Source: a virus
Taxonomy: Duplodnaviria > Heunggongvirae > Uroviricota > Caudoviricetes
Direction: 5' to 3' (one strand)
IMG/VR virus record: IMGVR_UViG_2541047913_000003
DNA: 4,404 bases
The stretch's first letter is position 1, and the number at the start of each line of letters is the position of its first letter. Made by a program: the position numbers and the translations under genes. Under the pieces are notes generated by a model. It was given only the letters and a program-made list of their open reading frames with translations. It had not been told where the DNA came from and searched no databases. Positions 1 through 4,404 of this stretch are shown in pieces.

Positions 1-524
1 CGGGGCGGCAGATTATCCAGAATCACCGACGCCAGGAACTGCGAGGTGGTCTTGCCGTTAATGGTGACATCCTTTTCCGTCATCCATTTACCACCACGCT
101 CAAGCTGAATCAGCAGGCGGACAGACGTCGGGTTACGGTCACCCTTTGACGTGGTCTGCACCAGTGACTGCACCCCGAAGGTAACCCGCAGGCGGTCAAT
201 GTTCGCTGACGTAATGGTGCGCGTCACCGGTTTTGCCTTCGTCACTTCCACGCCCAGTACAGTTTCAGCTCCGGAGGACTCAAAGCCTTCCGGTGGTGTC
301 TGCTCCTGCTCCCCGGCACGCCAGACCGCGGTCACACCGTGTATCACGGGATTACCGTCCGTGTCCGTCAGCGGGGTTTTGTTCACCAGAATACTCTGCA
401 GGCCTTTCACCGGACCTTCAATGGGTCCCTCACCAATCGCATCAATCACGCTCATCATCTGCGTGGATTTGAGATTATCCTTCGCCTCACGCGGTGTGTG
501 CCCCTTGCCGCCCCCTTTACCCAC
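1..524 (-). CDS. J: Central tail fibre / host specificity protein J, N-terminal 174 codons (3' end runs off the window at position 1)
   Basis: Hand translation of the minus strand from 524 gives VGKGGGKGHTPREAKDNLKSTQMMSVIDAIGEGPIEGPVKGLQ...RLLIQLERGGKWMTEKDVTINGKTTSQFLASVILDNLPP with no stop to the window edge. This closely matches the lambda gpJ N-terminus as I recall it (MGKGSSKGHTPREAKDNLKSTQLLSVIDAISEGPIEGPVDGLK...). The start is GTG at 522..524, preceded by a purine-rich SD-like GGAGAGGGGGA. It is absent from the ORF track because it has a non-ATG start and no in-window stop. Confidence 0.85.
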   Translation of the reverse strand, partial: MGKGGGKGHTPREAKDNLKSTQMMSVIDAIGEGPIEGPVKGLQSILVNKTPLTDTDGNPVIHGVTAVWRAGEQEQTPPEGFESSGAETVLGVEVTKAKPVTRTITSANIDRLRVTFGVQSLVQTTSKGDRNPTSVRLLIQLERGGKWMTEKDVTINGKTTSQFLASVILDNLPP

Positions 525-566
525 TCTGTCCCCCTCTCCTGTCTGATGTCTGAATCTGTTTATGCC

Positions 567-599
567 CAAAAAACAACAGGCACCCCGGAGGATGCCTGT
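567..599 (-). terminator. Intrinsic (rho-independent) terminator-like hairpin plus U-tract on the minus strand, between the small ORF and the J start
   Basis: Minus-strand sequence ACAGGCA-TCCTCCGGGG-TGCCTGT: a perfect 7-bp stem (plus coords 576..582 pairing with 593..599) with a 10-nt loop, followed on the minus strand by UGUUUUUU (plus 568..575). On the plus strand the same hairpin has no T-run after it, so it is directional. Confidence 0.55.
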
Positions 600-600
600 A

Positions 601-696
601 TCATGACTGAATAAAAATTCTGAATATCTTCACATTTTCACAAACTGACTGTGGCGCGTATAATTTCGCTGCGTTAGTGTTTTTTTGCCGTGACAT
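601..696 (-). CDS. Hypothetical small protein, 31 aa (MSRQKNTNAAKLYAPQSVCENVKIFRIFIQS), moron-like ORF in the I-J intergenic region
   Basis: ATG at 694..696 lies 10 nt downstream of a consensus SD AAGGAG (plus 707..712, reverse complement). The 31 codons end in a TGA stop at 601..603, one nucleotide before the minus-strand terminator hairpin at 567..599. It is below the size cutoff of the ORF track and I recognise no homolog; composition is AT-rich, unlike the flanking tail genes. Confidence 0.35.
   Translation of the reverse strand: MSRQKNTNAAKLYAPQSVCENVKIFRIFIQS
637..664 (+). promoter_or_regulatory. Sigma70-like promoter on the plus strand, antisense to the tail operon (-35 TTCACA 637..642, 16-bp spacer, -10 TATAAT 659..664)
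   Basis: Read directly: TTCACAaactgactgtggcgcgTATAAT. The -10 is a perfect consensus and the -35 matches 5 of 6 to TTGACA. The predicted start is about 671. It lies in AT-rich non-coding DNA and faces a plus-strand terminator about 100 nt downstream. Confidence 0.45.
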
Positions 697-776
697 AAAA
701 AAACAACTCCTTAACACTAATCTTCATTTGTCTGAATCTCCCGCAGCTCCGCAACTCTGCGGGATTTTTTTTATTC
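671..776 (+). ncRNA. Candidate small RNA of about 105 nt on the plus strand (predicted promoter to intrinsic terminator); function unknown
   Basis: The interval between the predicted promoter and the plus-strand terminator has no ATG on the plus strand. Its architecture is typical of an Hfq-type sRNA: a 5' A/U hairpin (678..686 pairing with 697..705), an unstructured C/A-rich stretch (about 706..738, AACUCCUUAACACUAAUCUUCAUUUGUCUGAAUCU), then a GC stem and long U-tail. The 5' end is inferred, not observed. Confidence 0.35.
739..776 (+). terminator. Intrinsic (rho-independent) terminator on the plus strand, abutting the I stop codon
   Basis: TCCCGCAG (739..746) and CTGCGGGA (757..764) form a perfect 8-bp GC-rich stem with a 10-nt loop, followed immediately by TTTTTTTT (765..772) and then ATTCTTTT. 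On the minus strand the hairpin is preceded by the A-run and followed by no U-run, so it should terminate plus-strand transcripts only. Confidence 0.65.
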
Positions 777-779
777 TTT

Positions 780-1460
780 TTACCCCTGCCGCCCGATAAC
801 CACGACCTTTCCGCCCCCGCCTTCATCACGGGTACTGATGTCCTGGGATATACGGCGGGAGCCAACCAGCATTTCCCCGTAAGGCACCGGCATCGGGTTG
901 CCCTGGGCAATCATGTTGTCCAGTGAGGAAAAGTACGTGTTCTGTTTACCGTTATCCGTTGCCCGGTAATCCGGTGTTTTTGCCTTCGGGGCCAGCATCT
1001 GGGCCACACCGCCCAGAATCATGCTGGCTCCAAGTGAAAACAGCATCGTGGTGGCAGAAAAACCACCGGCTGCCAGGGCTGAACCCCATAACGCCATCGA
1101 GGCTCCGGCCGTGATGAACGACCCCACGATGGCCGCCGCCCCCAGCACAATCTGCAGTCCGCCCTTTCCGGCACCGGCCAGTCGCGGCACAATGTGGATG
1201 ACCGTTCCCTCACCCAGCTGTTCGTGAAGACGGGCGTACACCGCCTCCGGTGCCGTGTCCTCACCGGCAATACGTATCTGGTACCAGCCTTCGTTCATCT
1301 GACGGCGGAATCCGGGCACCTGTAACGACAGCGCCCGGATGGCTTCCGCTGCCGTGTTCACATACAGGCTGAGGCGGCGGCCAAATCGTTGTAAATCCCC
1401 GTGAAGGCAGATGCGTGCCAGTGGCGGTGACGCCAGACAGAATGCGTTCGTCGTTGCCAT
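780..1460 (-). CDS. I: Tail tip assembly protein I (226 aa)
   Basis: The ORF-track protein MATTNAFCLASPPLARICLHGDLQRFGRR...DNGKQNTYFSSLDNMIAQGNPMPVPYGEMLVGSRRISQDISTRDEGGGGKVVVIGRQG is collinear with lambda gpI as I recall it (223 aa), including the ARICLxGDLQRFGRR and NGKQNTYFSSLDNM blocks and the Gly/Ala-rich central segment. The position between K and J is correct. Stop TAA at 780..782. Confidence 0.9.
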   Translation of the reverse strand: MATTNAFCLASPPLARICLHGDLQRFGRRLSLYVNTAAEAIRALSLQVPGFRRQMNEGWYQIRIAGEDTAPEAVYARLHEQLGEGTVIHIVPRLAGAGKGGLQIVLGAAAIVGSFITAGASMALWGSALAAGGFSATTMLFSLGASMILGGVAQMLAPKAKTPDYRATDNGKQNTYFSSLDNMIAQGNPMPVPYGEMLVGSRRISQDISTRDEGGGGKVVVIGRQG

Positions 1461-2101
1461 TTTTCGGAATACCTCTCCCGTTTACTCAGTTGTTCAGGCA
1501 GATGGTGAAGCAGCTCACCGTTGCCACAGTAAATGGCGGCATGGTTCGGTACCGAAGCACCAAAGCAGCACAGCAGCACATCGCCCGGTTGTGCTGATGA
1601 CAACGGCACCTGATACAGCCCTGTGGCCTCCAGATTATCCAGGTACAGGTTCTGGCCGTTGCGCCACCAGTCATCCTCGCGATGAAAATCCGGCATATCA
1701 ATGCCTGCCAGATGGTATGCATCCCGGAACAGGGTGTAACAGTCCGTCACCCCGTGCGCAAAACGTCGCCCGGTCAGGTGTGGCACACAGCGGAATTTGT
1801 GAATGTCACCCCGGCTGACCAGCCACCAGGGCAGTGCGCTTTTTATCTGCAGCCGCCGGTCAGCCTCGCTCAGCCAGGGCAGACCACCGGGATGACTGTG
1901 GACCAGTGCCACAATCTCCCCCTGCATCTCTGCCCGCAGCCAGTCTTCCGGTGCGATACGAAAATACGTCTCCGGCTCTGCGGAAATATTCACACAAGGG
2001 ATATACCACTCCCCCTCCGGCGTGCTTATCACGAAGCCGCACGACTCCGCAGGCGCACACCGCCGGGCATGCGCCAGAATCGCTGATTCAGTCTGTGTCA
2101 T
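1358..2101 (-). CDS. K: Tail tip assembly protein K (247 aa) with N-terminal JAMM/MPN-type metalloprotease motif and C-terminal NlpC/P60-type domain
   Basis: Frame of ORF 1358..2362, with the start placed at the ATG at 2099..2101 (MTQTESAILAHARRC...), 10 nt after the L stop. Further upstream ATGs would overlap L extensively. Contains the JAMM signature HSHPGGLPWLSEAD (H-x-H-x7-S-x2-D) with an upstream Glu (ESCGF), and a C-terminal half with conserved Cys (GVTDCYTLF) and His (VPNHAAIY) typical of NlpC/P60. The last 103 nt overlap the start of I out of frame, as I recall for lambda K/I. Confidence 0.8.
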   Translation of the reverse strand: MTQTESAILAHARRCAPAESCGFVISTPEGEWYIPCVNISAEPETYFRIAPEDWLRAEMQGEIVALVHSHPGGLPWLSEADRRLQIKSALPWWLVSRGDIHKFRCVPHLTGRRFAHGVTDCYTLFRDAYHLAGIDMPDFHREDDWWRNGQNLYLDNLEATGLYQVPLSSAQPGDVLLCCFGASVPNHAAIYCGNGELLHHLPEQLSKRERYSEKWQRRTHSVWRHRHWHASAFTGIYNDLAAASACM

Positions 2102-2111
2102 AAACCGGGAT

Positions 2112-2810
2112 TTACTGCGAAAGTTTATTAATGGAAAGGAAACCGCCAAAATTGCCGACATTCCTGCGCAGTTCACACCCGCGCATGCACTTGCTGCATC
2201 TGTCCTTACGGATATCCGTGGTGGGTTTATCGAACTCATCCGCCACAGCCCCGCCCGTGTAACCACACTCATCAGAGCGGTAGGTCCACATACAGGTGTT
2301 CGCCAGCATGATACGACCGGGAAACAGCGCCCCGTCCGTCTCGGTCGGTGTGGCCAGCACAAACGAGGCCGTCATGGCTGTCAGCTGCGACATCTGCTCC
2401 ACCACCCAGCGGTCACTCAGCTCCTGCTCCGGGTCCGCTTCCGGATTGCCCGCAACGAAATTCACCGCATCCAGAAAACGGGCATACACCCGGCGGCGGA
2501 CCACCGTGGCCCCCACCAGGCTCTGCAAATCCTCCGCCATTCCGGTGACAAGGCCGAAAAGATTGGACACCGTCAGCGACGGGCGGGCACTGCTGCCCTT
2601 TCCGTTCATCTCAAAGCCACTCCCCTCAATCGGGTACGCCTGATATTGCCGCCCCTGCCAGGTGACCGGCTCCCCTTTTTCATTCAGCTCATTGCAGAAA
2701 AAATACCGCTCACCGCCCTGTACCGTCAGGTCGATTTCCCAGAGCACCACCCGCGGTGACTGCTCTGATTTAACCGACTCGTTCAGACTTTCTTCGTGAA
2801 TATCCTGCAT
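2112..2810 (-). CDS. L: Tail tip assembly protein L (232 aa)
   Basis: The ORF-track protein MQDIHEESLNE...VVLWEIDLT...GGERYFFCNE.NEKGEPVTWQGRQYQ...GRIMLANTC.WTYR.DECGY...KCSKC...NVGNFGGFLSINKLSQ matches lambda gpL as I recall it along its length, including the Cys-rich C-terminal region, and has the same length. Its ATG at 2808..2810 overlaps the M stop codon by one nucleotide (TGATG). Confidence 0.9.
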   Translation of the reverse strand: MQDIHEESLNESVKSEQSPRVVLWEIDLTVQGGERYFFCNELNEKGEPVTWQGRQYQAYPIEGSGFEMNGKGSSARPSLTVSNLFGLVTGMAEDLQSLVGATVVRRRVYARFLDAVNFVAGNPEADPEQELSDRWVVEQMSQLTAMTASFVLATPTETDGALFPGRIMLANTCMWTYRSDECGYTGGAVADEFDKPTTDIRKDRCSKCMRGCELRRNVGNFGGFLSINKLSQ

Positions 2811-3139
2811 CAGTTCACCACCTGCTTAAACTCCGCGCTGAACTCAACGCGCAACATCCCGACCCGCGCAGACCACCCGGCACAGGTCACCTTTATCTGC
2901 CGGTATGCATAGGGTGGCTTCCACAAAAATGCCTTCCAGCCACCGTGCTCTGCCAGGAACGCTTCCAGATGACGGGCCTCCTCCCGGGTCACGGAAAGCA
3001 TCACCCGGTATGTTTTCAGGTCAGCATTCAGCCCTGCCGCCATACGCTGTGAGTACCCGTCACCAAAACGCACTTCACGCACCGATGGCTGCGAGTTCAC
3101 CTCCATATCCGGTTTCACTTTCCAGCGAAAGGTTTTCAT
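2810..3139 (-). CDS. M: Tail tip assembly protein M (109 aa)
   Basis: The ORF-track protein MKTFRWKVKP...VRFGDGYSQR...LKTY.V.LSV.REEA..LE.FL.EHGGWK.FLW.PPY..RQIKVTCA.WS.RV.MLRVEFSAEF.QVVN matches lambda gpM as I recall it and has the same length. Its ATG overlaps the H stop codon (ATGA), the lambda H/M junction arrangement. Confidence 0.9.
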   Translation of the reverse strand: MKTFRWKVKPDMEVNSQPSVREVRFGDGYSQRMAAGLNADLKTYRVMLSVTREEARHLEAFLAEHGGWKAFLWKPPYAYRQIKVTCAGWSARVGMLRVEFSAEFKQVVN

Positions 3140-4404
3140 CGCCCGCTCCCCGATAACAGACCGCCATCACGCAACTGCAGCCGGAGCTCATCCTGCGCAC
3201 CTTTACGGGCCATCTCATACACCGCTTTCATCAGCTGCGGCCCGGCCTGTCCGTTGATGCCGTCGTTCTGAATCACCACGTGATTGTTCTGATTAAAATT
3301 AATGCCTTCGGCCCGCCGCATCTGCGCCGGACTTCCGGCAGCACCCACATACCCCCCTTCCGCATAGCCCCGCATCAGGCGGTACAGGTTCCCGACACCA
3401 ATCCGGCTGGTTGCCTCCTTCGTGAAGACAAACTCCCCGCGGTGGACAATCCCCGCTGGCTCATATTTGCCACCGGTTCCCGTAAATCCCCCGGTCGCGA
3501 AATGGAAGTTCGCCGCCGCAGCCTGAATGGCCGTCCCCGTGGAAGCGGATGCGCCACCACCGAAAGCACCACCAATGGCGCTGCCGATACGCCCGACAAT
3601 CCTCACCATCGCCTGCTTCAGAAAAATCTCTGTCAGCATGGAGAGCACGGAACGGGTGAAACCACGCCAGTTCTGTTCGCTGCCGGTCAGCATCGCTGCC
3701 ATATTCTGTGCAATACCGTCAAAGGTCTGCGTGGCCGCGCTTTTAACCTGCGAAAAACTGTCCGTCGCACTTTCCGCCCACTCGCCCCAGCCGGACTTCA
3801 GACCCGCCATCCAGCTTCCACGAAGCTGCTCCTCCGCAGACCAGGTGTTCTTCAGTGCAGATGTGGCCTTCGCCAGCGCATCCGGATTATCACCGTACAC
3901 GTCACGAAGGCGCTGCTCTTCCGACTCCCGCTGCGCCTGACGGTCGGTGAGGCCGCGGGCTTTTGCGCTGATGGCGGCCTGCTTCGCGCTCTGCTGCTGT
4001 TCAAACCGCGCCGCCTGCTGTGCCAGCTCATTCAGCCGTTTCTGGTGTTCAACCTTGTCGCCCAGGTCAGCCAGCTGGCGTTTGTACTCCAGCGTCTCTT
4101 TCTCATGGGCCAGCAGGGATTTTTCCTGCTCAGATAACTGCCGTTTCGTGGCGGCCTCTTTCAGGACCACATACTGATTTTCCGCTTTCCATAAATCCCG
4201 GCGCTGCTGGCTGATTTTTTCATTCGCACCGGCATGCTTTTCCAGCGTCAGGAGCTCGGTTTCAAGCGCCAGCATGGCTGCATGCGCCCGGTCTTCCTGG
4301 CGCTCACCGGCAGACACCTTCACACCGGACGGCTTTTTCTGCGTCGACTCATAATCCTTTTTTGCCGACGCCATCAGCGTGTTGTAATCCGCCTGCAGGA
4401 TTTT
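3136..4404 (-). CDS. H: Tail tape measure protein H, C-terminal 422 codons (5' end is beyond the window at 4404)
   Basis: The frame is open from the window edge to the TGA stop at 3136..3138; the ORF track shows only the part from an internal Met at 4374. The protein has a long charged, coiled-coil-like segment (QQRRDLWKAENQ...EQEKSLLAHEKETLEYKRQLADLGDKVEHQKRLNELAQQAARFEQQQ), a Gly/Ala-rich segment (GRIGSAIGGAFGGGASASTGTAIQAAAANFHFATGGFTGTGG) and a conserved C-terminal region, consistent with lambda-family tape measure proteins. It sits immediately upstream of M. Confidence 0.9.
   Translation of the reverse strand, partial: KILQADYNTLMASAKKDYESTQKKPSGVKVSAGERQEDRAHAAMLALETELLTLEKHAGANEKISQQRRDLWKAENQYVVLKEAATKRQLSEQEKSLLAHEKETLEYKRQLADLGDKVEHQKRLNELAQQAARFEQQQSAKQAAISAKARGLTDRQAQRESEEQRLRDVYGDNPDALAKATSALKNTWSAEEQLRGSWMAGLKSGWGEWAESATDSFSQVKSAATQTFDGIAQNMAAMLTGSEQNWRGFTRSVLSMLTEIFLKQAMVRIVGRIGSAIGGAFGGGASASTGTAIQAAAANFHFATGGFTGTGGKYEPAGIVHRGEFVFTKEATSRIGVGNLYRLMRGYAEGGYVGAAGSPAQMRRAEGINFNQNNHVVIQNDGINGQAGPQLMKAVYEMARKGAQDELRLQLRDGGLLSGSGR

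Follow-up and report, generated by a model that had tools for sequence, protein, structure and literature searches.

Why does a tail operon whose genes otherwise overlap or nearly abut leave 255 bp between genes I and J, and what do those 255 bp carry? The question arises in the window, by which we mean the whole 4,404-nt stretch of viral DNA analyzed here (IMG/VR record IMGVR_UViG_2541047913_000003), where all genes lie on the minus strand in the order H, M, L, K, I, J (from position 4404 to position 1). The 3′ part of the tape-measure gene H (4404..3136) overlaps M (3139..2810) by 4 nt (3136–3139), M overlaps L (2810..2112) by 1 nt (2810), L and K (about 2101..1358) are spaced by 10 nt, and K in turn overlaps the tail assembly gene I, which was taken from the ORF list (1460..780, with the stop codon ending at 780; Pfam Lambda_tail_I, PF06805, 59.5 bits). 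Of J, the tail tip and host specificity gene, the window holds the 5′ part (1..524, minus strand; Pfam FNIII-A_GpJ, PF24801), comprising the first 174 codons from a GTG start at 524..522 (translation VGKGGGKGHTPREAKDNL...) before the gene runs off the window. In the RefSeq annotation of a 100% identical locus, gene I is shorter (582 nt, start at 1361) and gpJ ends at the same base as our J call. The J start codon is GTG in the window, VT1-Sakai and phage PhiR12_1, and ATG at the aligned position in E2348/69 and lambda.

An earlier note on this DNA had described the gap as an AT-rich insert of about 255 bp in an otherwise tightly packed operon, to be compared with a spacer of roughly 60 bp in lambda, and had proposed that it is a moron-like cargo slot. 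The dimensions were given correctly: the gap spans exactly 525..779 (255 bp), the remaining tail junctions overlap or lie at most 10 nt apart, the GC content in 100-bp windows is 0.35–0.44 across 551–800 as against 0.52–0.69 in the flanks, and the lambda I-J spacer (15445..15504) measures 60 bp. The further claim that the gap has promoter-like and terminator-like signals on both strands holds for the terminators and fails for the promoters. Between positions 400 and 900 we found two terminator-like matches (0.3 expected from shuffled sequences), one on each strand (plus, 748–763 and a T-run; minus, 599..576 and a T-run), and two promoter-like matches (0.4 expected), but the promoter scan gave a plus-strand signal alone and found no minus-strand promoter in the I-J gap. 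Searched against Rfam with E values up to 1 allowed, the whole window gave just two chance matches, both snoRNA-like and both inside J.

A Predicted sRNA Gene on the Plus Strand

We predict that the I-J gap carries a self-contained gene for a small RNA (sRNA) of the PasB family, encoded on the plus strand and antisense to the tail operon (671..772, as delimited by alignment to PasB of E2348/69 and by a covariance model). Its sigma-70 promoter (637–664, plus strand) agrees with the consensus at 11 of 12 positions in the promoter scan and is made up of a −35 box TTCACA (637–642), a 16-nt spacer and a −10 box TATAAT (659–664); from the position of the −10 box, the sRNA is predicted to start at about 671 and to measure about 87–102 nt. 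At the other end, folding recovers an intrinsic terminator and Hfq-binding module (740..772, plus strand), in which the stem strands CCCGCAG (740–746) and CTGCGGG (757–763) enclose a 10-nt loop and are followed by a U8 tract (765–772), with the 3′ end of PasB mapping to 772. The unpaired stretch directly upstream of the terminator, AAUCUUCAUUUGUCUG (719..734, plus strand), is the putative seed and holds an AUCUU core that is invariant across the family. With this promoter, this terminator and a direction opposite to that of the tail genes, the unit has the autonomy that the earlier note had ascribed to it.

The supported structure of the sRNA is the invariant terminator stem only. This stem is unchanged in 17 of 17 variants, which leaves no covariation to test, and RNAalifold applied across the variants retained the terminator alone. 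The minimum-energy fold of the window allele contains in addition a long-range 5′ helix that is 85% paired across variants, and the covariation in this helix was reached by 111 of 500 shuffles.

The cargo would be a small RNA and not a protein, and no ORF frame in the gap is conserved across the I-J variants. A protein moron would have to reside in a 38-aa ORF at 601..717 (minus strand) or a 40-aa ORF at 677..799 (plus strand), and both ORFs do exist in the window; moreover, one phage record lists a 32-aa hypothetical protein in the gap. However, the variants differ by indels of 1, 2 and 4 nt, in E2348/69 and in other classes the ORFs are interrupted or out of frame, no Shine-Dalgarno sequence or start codon is kept, and the plus-strand ORF runs across the terminator. 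We consider it highly improbable that the gap encodes a small protein.

Relationship to PasB

PasB is an 83-nt, Hfq-dependent sRNA of the EPEC strain E2348/69 that was found by RIL-seq and confirmed by Northern blot, and it maps to the minus strand of NC_011601 (1466343→1466261) between E2348C_1436 and E2348C_1437 (Pearl Mizrahi et al. 2021, PMC8550237, Table S6). Our inspection of this region identifies the two flanking genes as I and J, to both of which PasB is antisense; in PP6 of E2348/69, the last base of I is 1466255, the first base of J is 1466496, and PasB ends 6 nt past the I stop codon. The window gap and the E2348/69 PasB locus align over the entire stretch between the start of J and the stop of I, with order and orientation alike, and the published 5′ and 3′ ends of PasB correspond to window positions 686 and 772. 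Identity between the two loci is 83% over the RNA and 95% over 85 nt that include the promoter and the 5′ end. A covariance model (R1) built from 14 other variants, with the window left out, matched the window at 670..771 (plus strand) over the full model length (85.7 bits, E 4e-15), whereas lambda and eight lambda-type loci gave no match.

The −35 and −10 hexamers are the same in the window and in E2348/69 and are separated by a 16-nt spacer with two differences; the terminator stem, the U-tract and the conserved stretch 5′ of the terminator are shared; and both elements occupy the slot between I and J, antisense to the tail operon. The seed of the window, AAUCUUCAUUUGUCUG, equals its counterpart in PasB, GAUCUUCAUUUGUCUG, at 15 of 16 positions. 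By its homology, position and orientation, terminator and putative seed, the window element is a member of the PasB sRNA family. The expectation that this gap would hold something undescribed is accordingly not borne out, as PasB was published in 2021 (PMC8550237) and surveyed in 2026 (bioRxiv 10.64898/2026.05.13.724894); what our analysis adds is a rare allele, together with three hypotheses absent from the literature consulted, which concern a conserved CRP-like box, changes beside the seed that are peculiar to this allele, and a potential influence on J expression in cis.

The two alleles do differ, however. About 17% of the RNA positions are not the same, indels separate the sequences and the terminator loop differs; beside the seed, CUCCUUCACAUUG carries three substitutions, and from putative seed to terminator the window is four bases longer. 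Because of these substitutions and extra bases, the targets of the window allele may differ from those of PasB. In E2348/69, the half of the spacer next to J consists of another module.

The published RNA also bears on a further reading of the locus, namely that the gap is a mere extended untranslated leader of J with no independent gene. Positions 525–600 do hold the J ribosome-binding site and a hairpin, as in lambda-type phages, but a leader of this kind would leave the near-consensus promoter and the terminator on the opposite strand unexplained, 60 bp suffices in lambda-type phages, and the homologous RNA has been mapped by Northern blot and RIL-seq (PMC8550237). We find this reading scarcely credible.

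Other prophage-encoded sRNAs were compared as well. AgvB and AsxR, from lambdoid prophages of EHEC, lie downstream of PR′ beside stx or other morons and serve as sponges for GcvB or FnrS (Tree et al. 2014, PMC4104026). We rejected an identity of the window element with these anti-sRNAs on the grounds of its location in the tail operon and of the lack of any match to the Rfam models RF02702 and RF02703 at E values up to 1; the EcOnc supplement of Tree et al. holds nothing on tail genes. AgvB and AsxR resemble PasB as prophage-encoded, Hfq-bound short RNAs that occupy insertion-tolerant sites and have variable regions beside conserved 3′ ends, whereas sponging is a feature of AgvB and AsxR and location in the tail operon one of PasB.

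Presence, Absence and Exchange of Cargo at the I-J Junction

The earlier note had regarded presence/absence polymorphism as the mark of acquired cargo and the same sequence in most phages as the mark of a conserved spacer. We assembled a window-type set of 82 junctions, consisting of 79 IMG/VR loci with an I protein 96–99% identical to that of the window, the window itself, E2348/69 and phage PhiR12_1, and compared it with loci that carry the lambda-type I allele. All 82 window-type junctions contain a PasB-like segment in gaps of at least 231 bp, whereas all 80 lambda-type loci have a gap of 59–60 bp with a GC-rich hairpin and T-run only, so that 82 of 82 junctions of one type have the cassette, as against 0 of 80 of the other. 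From this comparison of window-type and lambda-type gaps, the cassette of about 180 bp is placed with the I stop codon on one side and, on the other, an older hairpin located in front of J.

The I-J spacer is a mosaic of a conserved cassette on the I side and a module on the J side that is exchanged between classes. The window-type J-proximal module has the minus-strand hairpin at 599..576. In the most common class among the sampled loci, with a gap of about 340 bp (such as L047, L065, L080 and L099, the last from Escherichia albertii), the place of window positions 525–600 is taken by an unrelated module next to J, about 180 bp long, which has a hairpin of its own (CCCCGGTATC...GATACCGGGG). 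Three further loci (L041, L063 and L074) have an 848-bp gap with a gene for a 175-aa Cu,Zn superoxide dismutase, sodC (PF00080), in the orientation of the sRNA; here the sRNA promoter and its upstream box have been replaced, and a PasB-like body is kept downstream of the sodC terminator (88.3 bits with model R1). Prophage sodC is a protein moron in the same I-J slot and the same orientation, which shows that the junction tolerates cargo, whereas the window holds the RNA cassette alone. Given sodC in this slot and the swapped modules, the reading of the junction as a moron slot stands.

Morons in the sense of Juhala et al. 2000 are said to have their own promoter and terminator, variable presence, a distinct composition and expression from the repressed prophage. 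The window has the promoter and terminator, the presence/absence and the deviating GC content (0.35–0.44 against 0.52–0.69). The proposal of an acquired moron cargo slot is thus upheld by the polymorphism, the unit's own signals, the low GC content and the alternative cargo, and needs amending in that the cargo is a known sRNA and not a protein. Nothing in our analysis points to a phage-defence function, which the earlier note had suggested as one possibility.

Distribution and Annotation

The 255-bp gap has matches in 1,768 of 5,426 complete E. coli genomes, at a median of 2 places per genome and at up to 10, and in 147 phage records, mainly of Stx-converting phages; the sRNA segment alone has matches in 1,236 of the 5,426 genomes. 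By these counts, between roughly one quarter and one third of complete E. coli genomes have matches to PasB-like cassettes, often several per genome. Of the 1241 records that match over 665–779, just 18 reach an identity of 90% or more to the window allele, while most of the 1241 are 80–90% identical; the window therefore represents a rare allele of a common family. The whole gap is 100% identical in a prophage of E. coli 2015C-3121 and in four other complete genomes.

This rarity, together with the indels relative to canonical PasB, would be in line with the cassette being an inactive relic in this strain, diverged and either unexpressed or non-functional. Several findings argue against such a relic. 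The promoter hexamers equal or surpass those of E2348/69, and neither the upstream box nor the terminator stem nor the U-tract has been damaged; of the 16 seed bases, 15 are kept, and five other complete genomes carry identical copies. We regard a relic as very unlikely.

A scan for the promoter motif (an 18-base pattern, with one genome per species) returned mostly chance matches and a genuine copy in Escherichia albertii only, in agreement with the restriction of PasB to Escherichia/Shigella (Zhu, Shabalina and Storz 2026, bioRxiv 10.64898/2026.05.13.724894). A match to the promoter motif in Brenneria was discarded as unrelated sequence that has no PasB-like element.

Among the matches listed, the RefSeq annotation shows no feature under the sRNA cassette, because Rfam has no model for the PasB family. 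The record of phage PhiR12_1 (L002, 1602–1700, XSB41643.1) has the sRNA gene covered, on the strand of the tail genes, by a hypothetical protein of 32 aa; this is probably a mis-annotation because the frame is not conserved among the variants. Recognition of the cassette corrects the annotation and makes the I-J junction a recurrent cargo site for sRNA and sodC.

Proposed Mode of Action

We hypothesize, and consider it highly probable, that the cassette is an antisense-inserted PasB-family sRNA that is made in the lysogen, bound by Hfq and paired with host and virulence mRNAs. Host RNA polymerase would start at the sigma-70 promoter of the cassette in the lysogen, where the tail genes are silent, and the resulting RNA of about 87–102 nt would terminate at the GC-rich hairpin and the U8 tail, the usual Hfq-binding module, with a possible contribution to Hfq binding from the A-rich tract at 696–704. 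The Hfq-bound RNA would then pair through its unpaired stretch AAUCUUCAUUUGUCUG, possibly together with CUCCUU upstream, with host and virulence mRNAs, and the pairing would alter the translation or stability of these targets. For the window allele, we infer expression, seed, regulatory direction and cAMP-CRP control from the sequence.

The data on PasB in E2348/69 are consistent with this scheme. PasB drops in an hfq mutant (log2 fold changes of −6.8 and −2.4), has baseMean values of 482 and 1,082 in the lysogen as against about 5–15 for the flanking tail genes, and reaches a higher level in static LB than in virulence-inducing medium (PMC8550237). In every one of its RIL-seq chimeras, with bfpB, bfpI, ftsZ, galE, ler, perB and rplX, PasB forms the 3′ part (PMC8550237); the evidence for these targets is physical proximity on Hfq. 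The seed of PasB has been proposed to lie in the region upstream of the terminator (Zhu et al. 2026, bioRxiv 10.64898/2026.05.13.724894). In our k-mer test, seed complements comprised a 10-mer in bfpI and an 8-mer in ler, with a pooled P of about 0.3, and full-length RNAduplex predictions between PasB and its RIL-seq partners gave long looped duplexes with z-scores near 0.

Among the PasB partners, ftsZ has the highest odds ratio (43.6, activating condition; PMC8550237). The fragment of ftsZ in the chimera (NC_011601 111363–111505, L208) covers the gap between ftsA and ftsZ together with the ftsZ start codon. DicF, an sRNA of the Qin prophage that is processed from the dicB operon transcript, contacts the translation-initiation region of ftsZ. 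The parallel between the two prophage sRNAs is one of outline only: both contact ftsZ, at the start codon in the case of the PasB chimera fragment, where the contact on the PasB side is an Hfq chimera, and their sequences are unrelated.

A CRP-like Box Upstream of the Promoter

Upstream of the −35 box lies a CRP-like box, TCTGA-N6-TCACA (619..634, plus strand), which we regard as a candidate activator site. It is the sole match in the window at no more than one mismatch, and at least one such match occurred in 19 of 200 shuffles. The two half-sites of the box are the same in every one of the 41 spacers that bear the promoter, whereas the N6 and the −35 and −10 hexamers vary. The center of the box, at about −44.5, is at no canonical class II position.

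In static LB, the CRP-repressed Spf is about 5-fold lower and PasB is higher (PMC8550237). This pattern and the conserved box fit an activation of the sRNA promoter by CRP, without proving it. The PasB papers do not discuss the promoter, a regulator, the antisense relationship or the CRP-like box.

The J Leader and Action in cis

The leader of J (525..565, minus strand) has a Shine-Dalgarno sequence, AGGAGAGGGGG, at 540..530, and two tandem TGTCTGA heptamers (540–553, plus strand) lie just upstream of the J ribosome-binding site. The copy number of TGTCTGA varies, with two in the window and four in the J leader of another locus (L058).

Preceding this leader is a terminator-like hairpin (566..599, minus strand; terminator scan), with a fold z-score of −3.9 and the form ACAGGCAUCC-UCCG-GGGUGCCUGU followed by UGUUUUUUGG. 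Its one mismatch reads as G-U on the minus strand and as C-A on the plus strand. The I-J gap of lambda likewise has a GC-rich hairpin and T-run on the operon strand shortly before the J ribosome-binding site, but the two hairpin sequences are unrelated and the 60-bp gap of lambda is otherwise empty. We know of no function assigned to a terminator-like hairpin before J within a Q-antiterminated late operon.

An exact 11-nt direct repeat, TGTCTGAATCT, occurs at 547–557, in the J leader by the Shine-Dalgarno sequence, and at 729–739, in the sRNA just before the terminator. By virtue of this repeat, the sRNA of the window allele is complementary to the J leader.

It is conceivable, then, that the main job of the sRNA lies in cis, as a convergent transcript antisense to the I-J late mRNA that tunes J relative to I during lytic growth through processing or transcription interference, with the trans contacts being secondary. 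The sRNA is indeed fully complementary to the I-J late mRNA, its 3′ end lies 7 nt from the I stop codon, and in the window allele the repeat would pair the pre-terminator segment with the J leader. PasB of E2348/69, however, is abundant while there is hardly any expression of the tail genes, and its chimeras include unlinked mRNAs. Pairing between the window sRNA and its J leader has a z-score of about 0 relative to shuffled leaders, the J-proximal module is swapped between classes, and across the variants we found no consistent signal of sRNA pairing with the J leader. Since this complementarity is not conserved in the other variants, we treat cis control of J as a minor alternative and consider it unlikely that it is the main role; action in trans, through Hfq, is the reading we prefer.

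A composite of these elements may also be envisaged, in which the cassette is a cAMP-CRP-activated riboregulator with an allele-diversifying seed that has trans targets and also acts on the overlapped tail mRNA, with the 11-nt repeat serving in this allele as a second pairing site by the J Shine-Dalgarno sequence. We consider this composite distinctly unlikely; if true, the nutritional state of the host would feed into the synthesis of the host-range protein J.

The I-J spacer as a whole is flanked by a 12-nt near-repeat, with one copy (CCCTTGCCGCCC, 502–513) in the first codons of J and the other (CCCCTGCCGCCC, 783–794) in the last codons of I. The near-repeat may be a chance feature of glycine-rich, GC-rich coding sequence, or it may be a substrate for recombination.
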